Positions 12,364 to 38,810 of a stretch of DNA of 64,000 nucleotides are shown piece after piece. A program made the position numbers and the translations under genes. The notes beneath the pieces were generated by a model. The model was not told where the DNA came from. It saw only the letters and a list, made by a program, of their open reading frames with translations, and did no database searches. The first letter of the stretch is position 1, and every line of letters begins with the position of its first letter. Location: positions 2,381 to 66,380 of the forward strand of contig DATGVZ010000083.1 of assembly GCA_035299765.1 (NCBI GenBank). The letters are read 5' to 3'. The DNA comes from Gemmatimonadales bacterium. Its GTDB lineage: Bacteria > Gemmatimonadota > Gemmatimonadetes > Gemmatimonadales > GWC2-71-9.

Positions 12364-13612
12364 GCGCCGGCTCCGTGGGCGCGTCGAGGTTTTCAGACGG
12401 CGTGCTCTCACAGTGCACCAGCTCGGGCACGAGGTGGGCAACGCCGCGGATCGTGGGCGTCGCGGCGACGAAGAATGTCGCCGCCGCCAGCCAGCGGTCG
12501 CACGTCCGGTTGGTGACGTAGCGATGGAGATACGCGTGCACGCGGTAGCTCCCTTCCGCCAGCCGCAGTTGCACGCGGAACGTGCAGCGCAGGGTTTCAC
12601 CGGCCTTGATGGTGAGTGGTCCCGCGCCCAGGCGCTGCGTGCAGGTATCGAACACGAGGTAGTCGTTCTGGTCCACGATGGCGACGACGACACTGAGGTC
12701 GTCATGGGTCGTGCGCGCCGTCACCTCGATGCTGATGTCGGCGAATTCATCGGCCTCGAACGTCAGGCGCGGATCGTCCAGCGTCGCGATCGACACGTCC
12801 GTGATCCGGATGGCCCGTTCCGGCTCCAGCGCGCGTGCCTCATGGCCCCGCGACAGGTAGGTTCGGATGACGCTGTTCGAGGCGCCAATCTCGATGACCC
12901 GACCTCGCTCCAGCAGCGCGCTGCGCGCGCACAGCGTCGCCACGGCGCGCAAGTTGTGCGACACGAAGACGACGGTGGCGCCTCCCGTCATGATTTCGTT
13001 CATGCGATCGAAGCATTTCTGCTGGAACAGGTAGTCGCCCACACTCAGGACTTCGTCGACGACGAGGACGTCCGGCTCGACGTGCGCGGCAACCGAAAAG
13101 CCCAGCCGCGCAAACATCCCCGAGGAATAGCGTTTGACCGGCGTATCGAGAAATCCCTCGAGCCCGGAAAACGCGACGATGGCATCGAAGCGGCGCTTGA
13201 TCTCGGCGCGCGTCATGCCGAGAATCGTTCCGTTGAGATAGATATTCTCGCGACCGGTGAGATCGGGGTGGAACCCGGCGCTCACCTCGATCAACGCCGA
13301 GAGCCGACCGGCGACCCGCACCGCGCCGCGCGTCGGCCGCATAATGCGACTGAGGAGTTTCAGGACGGTGCTCTTCCCCGCCCCATTCGCCCCGATGACG
13401 CCGAACGCCTCGCCGCGCCGCACGGCGAAGCTCACGTCCTCGAGCGCCCAGAACTCCCGCGCCGTAAGCGGCGCGCCACCGTTGTCCGCGGCCCCGCGCC
13501 GCCGCAGCAACCGGCGGCCGAGTGCCGGGACCAGATCGCGCAGGGAGTCGTACAACTCGCCCTTGCGAAACTTCTTGTAGACGCCGTCGAGGGCGAGCGC
13601 GGTGTCGGACAT
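12353..13612 (-). CDS. wzt: polysaccharide ABC exporter ATP-binding protein with C-terminal glycan-binding-type domain (Wzt/TagH-like)
   Basis: The real start is ATG 13612 (MSDTALALDGVYKKF). It has Walker A GANGAGKST, signature YSSGM and Walker B LVVDEVL. An extra region of about 170 aa lies C-terminal to the NBD, as in Wzt. Confidence 0.85.
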   Translation of the reverse strand: MSDTALALDGVYKKFRKGELYDSLRDLVPALGRRLLRRRGAADNGGAPLTAREFWALEDVSFAVRRGEAFGVIGANGAGKSTVLKLLSRIMRPTRGAVRVAGRLSALIEVSAGFHPDLTGRENIYLNGTILGMTRAEIKRRFDAIVAFSGLEGFLDTPVKRYSSGMFARLGFSVAAHVEPDVLVVDEVLSVGDYLFQQKCFDRMNEIMTGGATVVFVSHNLRAVATLCARSALLERGRVIEIGASNSVIRTYLSRGHEARALEPERAIRITDVSIATLDDPRLTFEADEFADISIEVTARTTHDDLSVVVAIVDQNDYLVFDTCTQRLGAGPLTIKAGETLRCTFRVQLRLAEGSYRVHAYLHRYVTNRTCDRWLAAATFFVAATPTIRGVAHLVPELVHCESTPSENLDAPTEPAHAE

Positions 13613-33415: not shown

Positions 33416-33729
33416 CGCGCTCCCGCTTGCGCGCCTGTCTTGCAAGCCCGACGCCACCACGACCGCGCGAGGCGCACGCTGCTGCCGGCCTTTAAGCCAC
33501 GCCGAAGCAATGAGATATGTCGCCATCTGCTGTTCAGTCCCCGCGACTGAGACAGCCACGGGCTGTGGCAGCGACGAGACAGTTTACCGCGCGGTCCCTC
33601 GTGCGCTGTCGCTCCAACTTCTTGTCAATAGGTCGGTTAGAGCCGCTGCGCATGGCACCGCTCTTGCGACCCCCCATCCACCATTCACAGGGCCTCGGCA
33701 CGGAGGCTTCCAAGCGGAGGTGTAAGCGG

Positions 33730-34044
33730 ATGCGGCTTCCAATGCCCAGTCCGGATGTGATTTACAAGGCTGTAGACAACGGCGCGGTGCTGCTGTCCGT
33801 GAGCGACGAGGTCTATTACGGACTCAACGGCGTCGGCAGCTACATCTGGGAACATCTCCCGCCTGTCCTCGAAAATTTCGAGGCGCTCTGCGCGTCGGTC
33901 GGCGAGAAGTATCCCGACGCTTCCGCCGAGACGATTCGCGCAGACGTCCGCACGCTGCTCGAGGATCTCATGAGGCATGGGCTGGTGCGCACGCCAGCCG
34001 GCAGCGATGAAGTCGGTCAGCTTGAACCCGCGCGATTGGGTTGA
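33730..34044 (+). CDS. lasso peptide biosynthesis B1 protein (PqqD-family RiPP recognition element)
   Basis: Frame of ORF 33517..34044. ATG 33730 has GGAGG at 33716-33720; ATG 33742 is an alternative start. The PqqD-like pattern is VIYKAVDNGAVLLSVSDEVYYGLNGVGSYIWEHL...L...YPD......DV..LLEDL...GLV. Confidence 0.8.
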   Translation: MRLPMPSPDVIYKAVDNGAVLLSVSDEVYYGLNGVGSYIWEHLPPVLENFEALCASVGEKYPDASAETIRADVRTLLEDLMRHGLVRTPAGSDEVGQLEPARLG

Positions 34045-34438
34045 TCTCCTCGCTGCCCAGGCTGCTCTGGCTCGGGCTCAACTCCTGGTGTGGATCCGGC
34101 GCCCAGGGGCGCTCCTGACGCCGATGGTCGAGGCCCCGGCGGCGCCTGCGGACCCCGGCGCCGCTCTCCAGGCTGAGTGCGTTGCGCACGCCGTCTCGCG
34201 GGCGGCGCGGCATGGGTTGTTCCGGCCGAGCTGTCTCGTACGCGCGGTCGCGTTGCACCAGATGCTGCAGGCCCGCGGGTTGACCGGCAGCTCGCTGCGC
34301 GTCGGAGTCCGCCGCGAGGGCGCCGCATTTCTGGCTCATGCGTGGGTGGACTACCGCGGCATGGTGCTGGGCGAGGAGGAATGGCATGTGAAGCAGTTCG
34401 AGGAGTTGGCACGCATGGGCGTGCCGCGGACACAATGA
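34007..34438 (+). CDS. lasso peptide biosynthesis B2 protein (transglutaminase-core Cys protease)
   Basis: It carries RPSCLVRAVALHQMLQARGL...LRVGV......FLAHAWVDYRG, the Cys/His signature of the lasso leader peptidase. The start is ATG 34007 (MKSVSLNPRDW) or 33977. Either overlaps the B1 3-prime end. Confidence 0.8.
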   Translation: MKSVSLNPRDWVDLLAAQAALARAQLLVWIRRPGALLTPMVEAPAAPADPGAALQAECVAHAVSRAARHGLFRPSCLVRAVALHQMLQARGLTGSSLRVGVRREGAAFLAHAWVDYRGMVLGEEEWHVKQFEELARMGVPRTQ

Positions 34439-36447
34439 GCGGGATCTTCGGAGTCTTCACGCGCGATCGGGAGCCGATCGAGGACGTTGTGTCCGCGTCT
34501 TTGATCGCAGGCTTGGCGTCTCGCGGAAACGAGATCTCCTCGGTATGGCAGCTCAACGGAGCCGCGCTCGGCGTAACGCGTCGAGCGTGGGAGCGGGACA
34601 GTCCATTCAGCGGCGACGCTGGCGTTGTTTCGTGCGGCGACCTGACGATCGCGGCCGACGCCTCGCTGTATTATCGCCGTGAGCTGTGTGCCAAACTCGC
34701 AGCCGCCGGCGTGCACCCTGAAAGTGACACACCGAGCCACTTCATCGTCGCGGCCTATCGCGCGTGGGGGCGCGAATGTCTGCGACAGCTCGAAGGGGAC
34801 TACGCGTTCATTCTTTGGGACGCGCGGCGGCGCGAGATCTTTTGCGCGCGGGACTTCGCCGGCACCCGGCCACTCTTCTACCTGAAGACGGGCCGCCGTG
34901 TGGTCCTCGCCTCCACGCTTGCGGCGCTCCGCGCCGTGCCTGATTGCCCGCCGCAGTACAACGCCGCATACCTCGGCGAAACCGCTGCGAATCTGTGGCT
35001 CGCGGCAGACGAAACAGCGTACACCGCCCTCACAGCGCTGCCCGCTGGGTTCGCGCTGTCGACCACCCCTGGCGGTGCTGTCGTCACCTATCGTGCCTGG
35101 AGTCCGCCGGCCATCGACACGGCTGGTTCACCGTCATTCGAAGATGCCGCCTTGGAGCTCCGGGAGAAGCTCGCTCGCGCCGTCGGAGAACGCCTGAGTG
35201 GTGCGCGAGTCACAACGGTATGGATGAGCGGCGGCCGAGATTCCACCGCGATTTTTGGTGTGGGGCAGCGCGAGCTACGGGGCCAGGACCACCCGACGCG
35301 ACTCCTGCCGGTATCGATGAGCTATCCAATTGGCCATCGTGGTCGCGAGGACGAATTCATCACCGCTGTAGCAGGGTTCTGGGATGTCCCGGTGCAGTGG
35401 CTGAGCAGCGCGGACGTGCCATTCCTTGCGGATCCTGAACAGCAGGCGCGGCCGCGCGACGAGCCCTACGCCCCTCCCCACGAGATGATGAGTCGCGCAC
35501 TCGCGCGCGGCAGCGGCGGCGTGGGTGCCCGCATCGCGCTCGATGGGTGGGGCGGCGATCAGCTGTTTGAGCTGTCTCCCATTTACCTCGCCGATCTGTT
35601 CCGCCGCGGCCGTTGGTTGCAGCTGCGCCGCGAATGGAGCCGGCTGCAAATTCGGAACCGACGCTTTTTCCTGCAGTCGGCGATCGTGCCGACAATTCCG
35701 CCGGCGATTCGCGCGTTAGCTGGACTGCGCGGCGACCTCGAGCGCCGCATCCCTGATTGGATCGTGCCCCGTTGCGCGAAGCAGCTACGTGCGCGACAGC
35801 CGTCCCACCTGCCCCTGCGCGGAGGTGCGTCGTTTGCGGATCACGAGCTCTACATCGCTCTGACCGCCGACACCGCGGCGCGCGTCCGCGGCTGGCTGTC
35901 GGCGATCGCGCTCGATGAGGGGGTGGAGGTCCGCTCGCCGCTGTACGACTCCCGAATCATCGAGCTGGCGGTACGGAGACCGGCAGAGGAGCGCCGTTCC
36001 GGACGCGATACGAAGTTGTTGTTACGCGCCGCACTGCGCGGCCTCTTGCCCGAAGCGGTTCTCGCCCCACGCAAAGATCGCACGGGACTGGCTGGGGATC
36101 ATTTCCGCGCTGCGATGCAGTCGACGTTCCCGACGCTACTGCGGGAACTGCGCGATGCATCGGTGCTCGCGGACTTGGGCATCATCGACCCCGGTGCGCT
36201 ACGTCGCGCCGCCGATGATTGCCTCCTCCATTCCTGGAATGACGAGATCGCCGCCGCCCTGTTCTTCACGGTGCAAACGGAGCTGTGGCTCCGCGGTGTC
36301 GATCGCAAGGCGACTCACGATGATGGCCAACGGTTGGCCGTCCTTTCGCCAGGCGAGCGGCCTGGCAACGCCCCGCAGCCGGGAGGTAACAGGTGTACGA
36401 AACCCCGAAACTCGAGCGCTTCGGAACTTTTCGGGATCTCACGATGA
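34435..36447 (+). CDS. lasso peptide cyclase (asparagine synthetase-like lactam synthetase, C protein)
   Basis: Frame of ORF 34177..36447. ATG 34435 is in an ATGA overlap with the B2 stop. It starts MSGIFGVF, so it has no Cys2, as is typical for lasso cyclases. The PP-loop is VWMSGGRDSTAIF. A non-conserved-looking C-terminal tail overlaps the precursor leader. Confidence 0.85.
   Translation: MSGIFGVFTRDREPIEDVVSASLIAGLASRGNEISSVWQLNGAALGVTRRAWERDSPFSGDAGVVSCGDLTIAADASLYYRRELCAKLAAAGVHPESDTPSHFIVAAYRAWGRECLRQLEGDYAFILWDARRREIFCARDFAGTRPLFYLKTGRRVVLASTLAALRAVPDCPPQYNAAYLGETAANLWLAADETAYTALTALPAGFALSTTPGGAVVTYRAWSPPAIDTAGSPSFEDAALELREKLARAVGERLSGARVTTVWMSGGRDSTAIFGVGQRELRGQDHPTRLLPVSMSYPIGHRGREDEFITAVAGFWDVPVQWLSSADVPFLADPEQQARPRDEPYAPPHEMMSRALARGSGGVGARIALDGWGGDQLFELSPIYLADLFRRGRWLQLRREWSRLQIRNRRFFLQSAIVPTIPPAIRALAGLRGDLERRIPDWIVPRCAKQLRARQPSHLPLRGGASFADHELYIALTADTAARVRGWLSAIALDEGVEVRSPLYDSRIIELAVRRPAEERRSGRDTKLLLRAALRGLLPEAVLAPRKDRTGLAGDHFRAAMQSTFPTLLRELRDASVLADLGIIDPGALRRAADDCLLHSWNDEIAAALFFTVQTELWLRGVDRKATHDDGQRLAVLSPGERPGNAPQPGGNRCTKPRNSSASELFGISR
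36381..36386 (+). promoter_or_regulatory. Shine-Dalgarno (GGGAGG) for the lasso precursor gene
   Basis: GGGAGG lies 6 nt upstream of GTG 36393. The in-frame TAA at 36387-36389 excludes any more upstream start. Confidence 0.6.
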
Positions 36448-36509
36448 CCGTATTGGGACCCGGGACCCAGGACTTGCTCATGGGCGGGAATATTCTCTCG
36501 AGTTCGTAG
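36393..36509 (+). CDS. lasso peptide precursor (A peptide), 38 aa: MYETPKLERFGTFRDLTM-TVLGPGTQDLLMGGNILSSS
   Basis: Hand translation. It has a GTG start with a strong SD. The leader has Tyr-17, Pro-14, Leu-12 and Thr-2 when cleaved after Met18. The core has a single acidic residue, at position 9. It sits immediately after the B1/B2/C genes and before the kinase. It is absent from the ORF track because it is shorter than 60 aa. Confidence 0.75.
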   Translation: MYETPKLERFGTFRDLTMTVLGPGTQDLLMGGNILSSS

Positions 36510-36573
36510 CTCGAAGGGTGCTGGGGGGGCGGGGCTGCGTTCCAGACCCTACCCCCTCGGTAGCTCTCTGCCG

Positions 36574-37605
36574 ATGCCCACGTATTCGATTTTTGGCGAT
36601 TGCCTGCGCTCGGAGATCACACTTCCGGAGTTGCGTCGCTCGCGTAAACACGCGCGCTGGACGCTGCGGATAGGCGTGATCCCCCCTCCGGCACTGTCCG
36701 ATGGCGCCGAGCTCTTGGGAAGCGAGACGGTGATGGATGGAGTGGACGTGCGGCTCTATCGCCTCGCCAACGGCTACCGCTTGCAGTACGACGACACGGG
36801 CTCGTTCGACATCTCTGCGGAGGGCCGCGAGATCGTCTGGTCGGGAAACGGGAATGGAAACGCTGCCAAGCTCCTCGACGCCGTCCGACTCGACGTCATT
36901 AATCGGGTATTGCCCGTGGCGCTGCACGCGGCCGGGACCCTCTGTCTCCATGGCAGCGCGGTGAGTCTAAACGGAAAGGCGATCGCTTTTCTTGCTCCCC
37001 GTTGCCACGGCAAATCCACGCTGGCACTCGCGCTCTCGCAAATCGGGGGGCGCATCCTGACGGATGATGCGCTGCCGGTGGAGCCCAGCGTGCCTGGCCG
37101 CGGCAGATCCGTGTCGGCGCGCCCTGGTGTGCACAGCGTGCGGCTCTTCGACGACACCGCGCGCGTCGTTCTCGGCGACCCACGGAATTGGAAACGAGTC
37201 GGCGCATACCCGCTGCCCCGGCGCGATGGCCACCTGCTTCCCGATGATCAGCCCGCGATCACGAAGCAGATTTTGCGCGGGATTCCGTTGCACAAGTTGA
37301 TGCTTCGGACAGTGCCGCTCGCGGCGATTTACGTGTTGCGACCGGTCCGCGGCGACGGAGACCGCCCCGTCCTCAGCCGCACGGCACTCGCGCCCGTACG
37401 CGCGGCATTGTCTCTCGTCGAGCACGCCAAGTCCGGCGCGCTGCTGGGGCGCTCCGAGGCGCCACGCTTACTGGACCGCGCCGTCACGATCGCACGCCAG
37501 GTCCCGGTCTACGTGCTCGAGATCGTTCGCGACCTGTCCCGCATCGATGAGGCCGCCCGGGAGCTCGCGGGGTGGCACGTCCGCACCAACGGCCGCTACG
37601 TATGA
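36574..37605 (+). CDS. HPr kinase-like P-loop kinase (lasso precursor Ser kinase type)
   Basis: It carries LCLHGSAVSLNGKAIAFLAPRCHGKSTLALAL...GGRILTDDALPVEP, the pattern of HprK-related kinases encoded in paeninodin-type lasso clusters. Confidence 0.75.
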   Translation: MPTYSIFGDCLRSEITLPELRRSRKHARWTLRIGVIPPPALSDGAELLGSETVMDGVDVRLYRLANGYRLQYDDTGSFDISAEGREIVWSGNGNGNAAKLLDAVRLDVINRVLPVALHAAGTLCLHGSAVSLNGKAIAFLAPRCHGKSTLALALSQIGGRILTDDALPVEPSVPGRGRSVSARPGVHSVRLFDDTARVVLGDPRNWKRVGAYPLPRRDGHLLPDDQPAITKQILRGIPLHKLMLRTVPLAAIYVLRPVRGDGDRPVLSRTALAPVRAALSLVEHAKSGALLGRSEAPRLLDRAVTIARQVPVYVLEIVRDLSRIDEAARELAGWHVRTNGRYV

Positions 37606-38810
37606 TCGCCTCTCAATCGCTCTCAGCGGAGGCGCAGCTGCTGCTCATGGCCGCCGACGGCCGGAGCGATGCCACGCACGCATCGATATCTCTCGACGAT
37701 CATTTCGATTGGGCGAAGCTCTTGCGTCTCGCCCAGGAGGAGGGTTCCACCGCGCTCGTGTGGCGTTGGGTGCGGCACACCCACGCTCAGCATGTGCCCG
37801 CTGACGTCGCAATTCAATGGCAGCGACTTGCGATGGTCGCCGAATTCCAGATGTTGCATTTGGAGCGTTTGCTGGACGACGTGCTCGACGTGTTCGAGGC
37901 GTACGGGATCGAGTCCGTTCTGCTGAAGGGCAGCGCGCTCGCATACACGGTGTATGGCTCCTTCGCGGCCCGCCCGATGGGCGATCTCGACTTGCTGGTG
38001 CGACCAGTCCAAGCGCAGGAAGCGTGGTCGCTGCTGCAAGCGAACGGCTGGGTCTGGCCATCGGACCGCTGGCCACGCGCGCATTACGTTGCCCATCAGC
38101 ATTTGCCTCCGCTCGTCCATTCATCGGGCAGCGAGCTCCGCGCGGAGATTCATTCCGCGCTGTTCCCCATTGGTCACCCCTTCCGCTGGCCGGTCGAGGA
38201 CGTGTGGAATCAGGCGACGCGGCTGCGCGTGCAGAATCGTTCCGTGCTCGTGCCGCAACCGTTCCATCAGTTGTTGCACCTCTGCATCCACTTTGCCTGG
38301 TCGCACGAGATGCGCTGGGGCAGCTGGCGCGCGCTGCGGGATGTCGCCGCCATCACGAGGCGCGAGAACATCGGCTGGACGGCGTTTGTCGAGACCGCGC
38401 GTACCTGCCGGGCGACGACATGCTGTTACTGGACCCTGCGCCTGGCTCGCGACCTCAGCGGCGCGCTCGTGCCGGATGACGTGCTGCATGCCTTGCGGCC
38501 GCCGAGACCGGAGTCGCTGTTACGGCGCCTCGAGTGTCATTACACGCTTCAGCTCTTTGCCCTCGACAACGTCTGCCCGTCGGAAGGGTTGAACAATGCG
38601 TTATGGCAGCTGGGCATTGCGCCGCGGTGGTGCGGACACGGCGGTGCCCGGCCGTGGCAAGGCGCCGAGCACTGGACGGCGAACGGCGACCAGCGAAGCG
38701 CGCGCGCGGCCTGGCCGCGGCGGATTATGAACCGGGTGCGTCACGCGGCGGCGATTCTCGTGTATCTGGGGAGGGTAACGGCGACGACGGGGCACCCGCT
38801 TCGCGCTTGA
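37602..38810 (+). CDS. nucleotidyltransferase family protein (NTP_transf_5 / PF14907-like)
   Basis: ATG 37602 in an ATGA overlap with the kinase stop. The motif VLLKGSALAYTVYGSFAARPMGDLDLLVRP is characteristic of this family. Its 3-prime end overlaps convergent rarA by 86 nt. Confidence 0.7.
   Translation: MIASQSLSAEAQLLLMAADGRSDATHASISLDDHFDWAKLLRLAQEEGSTALVWRWVRHTHAQHVPADVAIQWQRLAMVAEFQMLHLERLLDDVLDVFEAYGIESVLLKGSALAYTVYGSFAARPMGDLDLLVRPVQAQEAWSLLQANGWVWPSDRWPRAHYVAHQHLPPLVHSSGSELRAEIHSALFPIGHPFRWPVEDVWNQATRLRVQNRSVLVPQPFHQLLHLCIHFAWSHEMRWGSWRALRDVAAITRRENIGWTAFVETARTCRATTCCYWTLRLARDLSGALVPDDVLHALRPPRPESLLRRLECHYTLQLFALDNVCPSEGLNNALWQLGIAPRWCGHGGARPWQGAEHWTANGDQRSARAAWPRRIMNRVRHAAAILVYLGRVTATTGHPLRA

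Follow-up and report, generated by a model that had tools for sequence, protein, structure and literature searches.

Paeninodin, pseudomycoidin and the SyanA peptide belong to lasso peptide clusters that also carry the gene of a precursor kinase, and these are the closest described systems to the cluster treated here, which lies in a stretch of 64,000 nucleotides (the window) of contig DATGVZ010000083.1 from a Gemmatimonadales bacterium. PadeK and ThcoK are kinases of the linear precursor, in which they phosphorylate the C-terminal Ser; on this residue up to four phosphates are stacked by ThcoK and SyanK (PMC8498205; PMC9266682). PsmN, described as an uncharacterised nucleoside triphosphate (NTP) transferase with ANT(2'')-like structural homology, is needed for the additions of 162 and 324 Da (hexose) to phosphorylated pseudomycoidin, which are lost in the D134A/D136A mutant (PMC6993621). 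BsfK, from Bradymonas sediminis, phosphorylates instead the ring residue Ser3, and its cluster carries genes of both kinds, K (kinase) and N (nucleotidyltransferase-fold protein) (PMC10368454). A preliminary description of the window had named as precedents the phosphorylation of the terminal Ser by an HprK homologue, the polyphosphorylation by related kinases and the modification of the pseudomycoidin phosphoserine with sugar, and the literature bears out all three; it had also taken them to be limited to Firmicutes, which is not the case, since SyanK comes from the proteobacterium Sphingobium yanoikuyae and the Bradymonas sediminis cluster has K and N. No characterised lasso peptide from Gemmatimonadota was found in the literature searched, which gives genome-mining counts only (PMC11316326). 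In the window, six co-directional genes, B1-B2-C-A-K-N (about 33730-38810), form a split-B lasso cluster of the paeninodin/pseudomycoidin/SyanA kind. It is proposed, as the probable though by no means assured reading of these genes, that the C-terminal Ser38 of the precursor is phosphorylated, that a Thr1-Asp9 lasso is formed, and that the phosphate is decorated by N.

The recognition of a lasso cluster with kinase and nucleotidyltransferase genes in the preliminary description agrees with the Pfam and NCBIfam assignments, which give B1, B2, C and A, followed by K and N. As in the paeninodin cluster (padeCAKB1B2D, Paenibacillus dendritiformis) and that of the kinase homologue ThcoK, B is split, the kinase gene adjoins the precursor gene and the precursor ends in Ser. 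The paeninodin kinases and K have the catalytic His/Lys/Asp-Asp set in common, and both peptides have a 9-residue ring closed on Asp9, predicted in the case of the window, with G-P-G-T inside it (PadeA AGPGTSTPD; window TVLGPGTQD). The window cluster differs in its gene order, in lacking the D exporter, in having an N gene, in the kinase P-loop (APRCHGKST vs GDSGAGKST of the known kinases), in a core that starts with Thr where that of PadeA starts with Ala, and in phylum and GC content. The pseudomycoidin cluster (psmCAKB1B2ND, Bacillus pseudomycoides) likewise combines a kinase and an NTP-transferase gene with a terminal Ser, and the window N is a PF14907 protein; PsmN and N both resemble ANT(2'') structurally and both have a DxD motif, a likeness by description and fold only. 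The gene psmN lies between B2 and D, whereas the window N is translationally coupled to K and no exporter is present. The SyanA/SyanK cluster (Sphingobium yanoikuyae ATCC 51230, Proteobacteria) shares with the window a Gram-negative host, a precursor ending in Ser and a nearly identical leader (YESPELVELGSFESLTQ vs YETPKLERFGTFRDLTM). Its P-loop, GDKLAGKST, also lacks the middle Gly but retains the first one, and the core sequences are unrelated. The bsf cluster (strain FA350), also a Gram-negative lasso cluster with K and N, differs from that of the window in having Asp as the last residue of BsfA, Ile and not Thr at −2 of the leader, and a kinase that acts on the ring and has a lower score, 39 bits, with the K family profile.

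Gene A is a genuine lasso precursor rather than a chance open reading frame (ORF), because its N-terminus matches NCBIfam NF033521, lasso_leader_L3 (26 bits, cutoff 19), and about 60 of 80 related loci have the leader YxxPxLERFGTFRELT again, 5' of the kinase homologue. These loci were collected by a genome scan with the K family alignment, and all but one come from metagenome-assembled genomes (MAGs) of Gemmatimonadota. A GGAGG sequence lies 6 nucleotides 5' of the GTG start. The precursor has the YxxPxL...T(−2) leader, with Thr17 at −2, and an Asp at core position 9, within the 7-9 range in which lasso precursors carry Asp/Glu; the spacing YxxPxL-(9)-T-x agrees with that of SyanA. Orthologue alignments place the predicted leader/core boundary after Met18, and point to a ring between Thr1 and Asp9. 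Cleavage after Val20, which would give a core beginning LGPGTQD, a 7-residue ring and Thr19 at −2, was considered and rejected: with the Met18 boundary the distance from P to T(−2) agrees with that in SyanA, and in the orthologues the residues aligned next to T-[MQL], on its C-terminal side, read [TSA]-V-[LV]-G-x-G-[TS]-x-D. The Ser-Ser-Ser terminus reported in the preliminary description was confirmed by direct reading of the codons, TCG AGT TCG, followed by TAG at 36507-36509.

By homology, K is clearly related to the characterised lasso-precursor kinases, which were compared as fragments of 95 residues taken from Fig. S10 of PMC10368454. A hidden Markov model of the K family (alignment of 40 sequences) scored the C-terminal-Ser kinases PsmK, PapoK, BaceK, PadeK, SyanK and ThcoK, for which action on that residue is either proven or reported, at 70, 68, 67, 61, 59 and 51 bits, respectively, PsmK being the best among the characterised kinases, and all six Bradymonadales Ser3 kinases at 22-48 bits. 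When the family was aligned with hhalign to PadeK-like sequences, which are short partial proteins (54-169 residues) found with the characterised-kinase fragments, a match of 99.8% (E 1.5e-27) was obtained over 188 columns that include the N-terminal domain. A phylogeny against PadeK-type kinases, the check suggested at the outset, was made as a crude neighbour-joining tree; in it the Gemmatimonadota clade adjoins SyanK, the nearest characterised kinase, and the C-terminal-Ser and Ser3 kinases separate. His126, Gly146-Lys147-Ser148 and Asp164-Asp165 are invariant across the 40 family members, and they match the His-Lys-Asp-Asp residues that mutagenesis has shown to be essential in lasso kinases (PMC9266682; PMC10368454). 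In the window K, A141-P-R-C-H-G-K-S stands in place of the Walker A sequence G-x-x-G-x-G-K-S, which in HprK/P and in the Firmicute lasso kinases usually reads G-x-S-G-x-G-K-S-T. Throughout the Gemmatimonadota kinase clade, A141 and P142 are kept. The A-P-x-x-H-G-K-S-T P-loop, in which the K-S core is retained, therefore appears to be a conserved feature of this clade rather than a sign of decay.

The term HprK-like, which had been applied to K, holds in part: K is a remote relative of HprK/P by profile and fold, but it has no PF07475 match. No Pfam family, PF07475 (Hpr_kinase_C) included, matched K at E<=0.01, and nothing was found when K alone was searched with phmmer against the PDB sequences. 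The score with TIGR04352 is 27 bits (cutoff 200), and the precomputed match to PF27840 (ScmC) is only faint. The K family profile retrieved from the PDB sequences four HprK/P chains (E 0.0065-0.015), plus one unrelated chance match at E 1.4, and the alignments of the family with HprK/P pair LHG...GKS...DD. The AlphaFold2 (AF2) model of K has a mean confidence (pLDDT) of 92, and its Foldseek matches in the PDB are PEPCK structures (E about 1e-8), with no HprK/P chain among the matches listed; the link to the HprK fold is drawn through ECOD, where HprK is assigned to the topology group of the PEPCK C-terminal domain (PMC7758060). K is thus predicted from its model to have a PEPCK/HprK-type P-loop fold. 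HprK/P and K would share this fold, in which alpha-1/beta-2 is followed immediately by the Walker B Asp; the scores against HprK/P sequences are low, at about 18 bits, and N-terminal domain and substrate differ.

The precursors encoded next to these kinases bear on the residue that K would modify. Seventy unique precursors with the conserved leader, falling in 31 sequence groups, were taken from the kinase loci. Ser is the C-terminal residue in 48 of the 70, vs a Ser content of 8.6% over the cores as a whole, and it is the commonest last residue in 22 of the 31 groups; the binomial p of 1e-34 for this enrichment is overstated, as relatedness is ignored. These counts support a link between the kinase family and a C-terminal Ser in its precursors. 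A Ser-Ser-Ser ending occurs in the window precursor and in no other of the 70. The cores of the syntenic relatives, obtained by exact-protein look-up or from the genome scan, are listed in Table 1; the endings of the closest ones are PTS, PGS, TGS, GGS and PSS, and Ser ends seven of the eight distinct precursors of the subclade, with positions −2 and −3 varying. The comparison indicates that the last Ser alone is conserved, and that the run of three is a local quirk. The preliminary description had suggested that the three serines could give a different modification pattern, which the closest relatives, keeping only the last Ser, and the published polyphosphate, which sits on a single Ser, do not favor.

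Among the 22 related precursors that do not end in Ser (examples are L011 2722-2886, L018 1984-2151, L028 7754-7930, L031 7769-7936, L060 2316-2432 and L070 7774-7884), 17 have a Ser at a distance of 2-5 residues from the end. Its surroundings are conserved, with R-x-G-S before V, VA, PVSIG or PVSIT, and HRYS before A or PIG, which suggests phosphorylation of a near-terminal Ser or C-terminal trimming. Two loci, L032 (12789-12920) and L034 (2424-2537), have unusual predicted cores, LAYWWWWWCEDEEGGPPDNDPQHDRS with five consecutive Trp and QGQGRGRGRGRGRGRGGGHS, a Gly-Arg repeat, both ending in Ser. A subgroup of precursors of the form GKSDPG...GRS (L041-L044, L049-L051, L055, L061, L063 and L065) is accompanied by B1, C, A, K and an ATP-binding cassette (ABC) transporter, and neither B2 nor N was found by tblastn within its flanks. 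Two or three precursor genes per locus, alike in leader but not in core, are present in L078 (6712-6867, 7788-7943 and 12866-13018) and L010 (3246-3389 and 8729-8866), and the precursors all end in R-S.

The assignment of the 37602-38810 product to PF14907 stands (NTP_transf_5, 145.2 bits against a cutoff of 31.2, E 3e-42). Lys109, Gly110, Asp128, Asp130, Glu182 and His184 are invariant among 38 N homologues. Gly110 and the DxD motif (D128-L-D130) constitute a Pol-beta nucleotidyltransferase signature, this motif corresponding to the residues mutated in PsmN D134A/D136A, and Glu182 is probably the third carboxylate. The AF2 model (pLDDT 88.8) has as Foldseek neighbours LnuA, ANT(2'')-Ia and FKRP, a CDP-ribitol phosphotransferase, all of them weak matches (E 4e-3 to 0.3). 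The FKRP match was deposited as a Mg/CMP complex (structure entry), and the ANT(2'') structures 5cfs and 4xje, also matched, are entries reported for PsmN. The modelled fold of N would suit glycosyl transfer no better than it suits a transfer of nucleotidyl or phospho-alcohol groups. Of the 80 kinase loci, at least 48 contain N, which usually follows an ABC ATPase and an ABC-2 permease.

From the gene identities, homology, intact motifs and conserved terminal Ser we infer the chemical steps, the ring position and the order of events, as follows. The 38-residue precursor would be made first, and Ser38 would be phosphorylated by K on the linear precursor, where further phosphates may be stacked on the same phosphate. 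B1 would then bind the YxxPxL...T(−2) leader and B2 would cut after Met18, so that C could join the amine of Thr1 to the side chain of Asp9, giving a 9-residue ring with an 11-residue tail. N, with its Pol-beta-type nucleotidyltransferase fold, would add a group to the phosphate, for which one or two hexoses are the sole precedent. Ser36 and Ser37 probably take no part. Several observations weigh against this pathway. Thr is uncommon as the first residue of a core, and the predicted tail, LLMGGNILSSS, has no large plug residue. With 22 of the 70 precursors ending otherwise than in Ser, the site rule has exceptions; N occurs in the kinase family without correlation with the terminal Ser of the precursor, and the window cluster, unlike most relatives, has no ABC exporter. 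The P-loop of K is without two of the three GxxGxGKS glycines (A141, C144), and the G163A change in BsfK, at the first of those positions, lowered activity (PMC10368454). As for the last step, the authors of the PsmN study could not exclude that the protein merely supplies substrate to a host glycosyltransferase (PMC6993621).

It has been argued, in the preliminary description, that all three terminal serines could be phosphorylated or decorated, in a multi-site pattern unlike the single-Ser chemistry of paeninodin. Three hydroxyl residues are indeed available at the C-terminus, one relative (L085) ends in Ser-Ser, and BsfK demonstrates that lasso kinases can use non-terminal sites (PMC10368454). 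This proposal is nevertheless held to be improbable, as the triple Ser is confined to one precursor of the 70, positions −3/−2 of the closest orthologues are occupied by Pro-Thr, Pro-Gly, Thr-Gly or Gly-Gly, so that no selection on Ser36 and Ser37 is visible, and the characterised kinases are reported to be specific for the C-terminal Ser, with the polyphosphate on that residue (PMC8498205; PMC6993621; PMC9266682). The example of BsfK raises also the question of whether K could target a Ser or Thr of the ring or the interior, such as Thr1 or Thr7 of the window core, and not the C-terminus, given that the bsf cluster combines K and N with a kinase acting on core residue 3 (PMC10368454) and that 22 of the 70 family precursors have no terminal Ser. 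This is given little credence, because K is nearer to the C-terminal-Ser kinases, both in profile scores (51-70 bits vs 22-48 for the Ser3 kinases) and in the split of the tree, and because the family shows a strong enrichment of the terminal Ser, which the subclade conserves. Residue 1 of the ring varies, moreover, among T, S, A, V and Q; position 7 is mostly Ser/Thr, with Asn, Ala or Gly there in three relatives, and the equivalent Ser of L016 falls within an 8-residue ring.

The nature of the last step is the part of the proposed pathway for which another chemistry has some claim. N could nucleotidylylate the phosphoserine (peptide-P-NMP, NMP being a nucleoside monophosphate), transfer a phospho-alcohol or use another substrate, with no glycosylation. 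Its fold neighbours include the adenylyltransferases LnuA and ANT(2'') together with FKRP, no glycosyltransferase motif was reported in PsmN, whose mechanism was left open by the authors (PMC6993621), and the occurrence of N in the family is independent of the terminal Ser. The Foldseek matches are weak, however, the best having E 4e-3, and the sole experimental datum for an NTP transferase of a lasso cluster is the hexose addition (+162/+324 Da) abolished by the DxD mutation (PMC6993621), so that this alternative is regarded as rather unlikely. That the cluster is silent or decaying, with its ABC exporter lost, a degenerate P-loop and no mature modified peptide, is considered very improbable. 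An ABC ATPase and an ABC-2 permease lie between K and N in 38 of the 80 related loci (e.g., L009 8663-10820) and none in the window, where the sole ABC ATPase-like match in the 64 kb is at 12773-13444 on the minus strand (29% identity), and the P-loop glycines of K are replaced. All six ORFs are intact, however, and in the window and its close relatives K is joined directly to N without a transporter (6 of the 80 loci, plus L081-L089). This exporter-less K-N layout is kept, with the same flanking genes, in diverged relatives (kinase identity 58-86%), and the P-loop variant extends over the whole family, in which the catalytic residues do not vary, which argues against decay; layout and P-loop variant both speak for purifying selection. 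A bolder proposal joins two ideas: the C-terminal phosphate with its N adduct would act as a steric lock that keeps the tail threaded, and N would make a phosphodiester- or pyrophosphate-linked conjugate (nucleotide or polyol-phosphate), a chemistry undescribed for peptides synthesized by the ribosome and modified post-translationally (RiPPs). It is entertained as a long shot, and under it Ser36 and Ser37 might be extra acceptor sites.

Table 1. Features of the lasso cluster, with coordinates in the window, and predicted cores of its syntenic relatives.
Feature	Coordinates	Strand	Details
B1, PqqD-like leader-recognition protein (RiPP recognition element, RRE)	33730-34044	+	PF05402 PqqD 55.8 bits; position syntenic in relatives
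B2, transglutaminase-like leader peptidase	33977-34438	+	PF13471 58.5 bits; NF033537 lasso_biosyn_B2 53.9 bits (cutoff 33)
C, Asn-synthetase-like lasso cyclase	34435-36447	+	PF00733 105.9 bits, plus GATase_7/6
A, precursor peptide	36393-36509	+	GTG start, 38 residues, MYETPKLERFGTFRDLTMTVLGPGTQDLLMGGNILSSS; NF033521 lasso_leader_L3
A leader, M1-M18	36393-36446	+	
A predicted core	36447-36506	+	TVLGPGTQDLLMGGNILSSS
Predicted ring acceptor, Asp9 of core	36471-36473	+	
Ser36-Ser37-Ser38 codons	36498-36506	+	Ser38 (36504-36506) is the predicted phosphorylation site
GC-rich stem-loop, A-K spacer	36519-36562	+	−37 kcal/mol, z −2.2; no U tract
K, lasso-precursor kinase homologue	36574-37605	+	343 residues
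K His126 (catalytic)	36949-36951	+	
K P-loop	36994-37020	+	A141-PRCHGKS-T149
K Asp164-Asp165	37063-37068	+	
N, PF14907 nucleotidyltransferase-fold protein	37602-38810	+	402 residues; Gly110 motif intact
N Asp128-x-Asp130	37983-37991	+	
L081 core			TVVGPGTQDALLGGNILPTS; ends P-T-S; kinase 86% identical to K
L083 core			SVVGPGTNDVVLGGNILPGS
L001 core			SVVGTGTNDLLFGGNLVPPPTGS
L085 core			ALLGSGSTDVLLGGVAVAPPPPSS
L088 core			TGLFGGNDSLLCGEVRLPGGS
L016 core			VGGGGSSDLLIMAESSGGASGGS
L087 core			...LASGA

The four core lasso components all give family-level matches in Pfam and NCBIfam. B1 may start with the ATG at 33730 or with that at 33742, its longest ORF beginning at 33517, and its matches to the lasso PqqD chaperone families NF033530 and NF033536 are under the cutoffs, as is that of C to the lasso cyclase NF033535 (234.6 bits, cutoff 525). 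The genes are tightly packed: the 5' end of B2 overlaps the 3' end of B1, the stop of B2 and the start of C share an ATGA, and the 3' end of C overlaps the start of A by 55 nucleotides. The kinase-like gene does come next after the precursor gene, as first described, its start lying beyond a spacer of 64 nucleotides from the stop of A, and the ATGA coupling of K and N was found as well, the TGA of K (37603-37605) overlapping the ATG of N (37602-37604). An overlap of 4 nucleotides between K and N is present in three of five distinct relatives fetched (L081, L085 and L088); in L083 the overlap is of 13 nucleotides, and in L087 there is a gap of 35. The B1-B2-C-A-K context was found by tblastn in most of the 80 loci. 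K is 100% identical to a protein of a Gemmatimonadales MAG. The GC content is 0.64-0.68, and the GC-rich non-Firmicute setting, to which the preliminary description had pointed, is not rare, being that of hundreds of homologous clusters in Gemmatimonadota MAGs. The cluster is flanked by a divergent epimerase gene and by a convergent MgsA/RarA gene, and relatives conserve the order epimerase / B1 B2 C A K N / MgsA Zip. The last 86 nucleotides of N (38725-38810 in the window) lie also within the MgsA/RarA gene, whose product has in the window a low-complexity C-terminal extension of about 25 residues with respect to the L081 protein, which ends ...KLKREATER*, likely through a shifted stop codon.

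The spacer between A and K contains the GC-rich stem-loop listed in Table 1. A stem is present at the same site in nine of nine spacers of the subclade, with varying loop sequences and with 2 of its 11 pairs changed in a compensatory manner. Between the precursor stop and the stem-loop, a conserved GCTCGAG is present in the window (spacer 36510-36573) and in L001, L002, L016, L081, L083, L085, L087 and L088. No terminator or promoter consensus was found in the spacer; the scan for sigma-70 promoters found none and gave terminator-like matches no better than those of shuffled controls, and it is uninformative for this phylum. The stem-loop probably serves as a stabilising or attenuating hairpin of the mRNA, by which the ratio of precursor to enzymes would be set, and this would fit co-transcription of the genes.

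The cluster is a new and uncharacterised representative, from Gemmatimonadales, of a kind already known, with three modest twists of its own, namely the variant P-loop, the missing exporter and the translational coupling of K and N; the three terminal serines add nothing by themselves. The kinase clade to which K belongs is large and nearly confined to Gemmatimonadota. If the proposed pathway is true, phosphorylated lasso peptides would reach a fourth bacterial lineage, and the A-P-x-x-H-G-K-S-T sequence would offer a natural P-loop variant for structure-function work on peptide kinases. The more useful question is the real function of the PF14907 enzymes, for which the compact A-K-N module, with its translational coupling, would be a handy test system.

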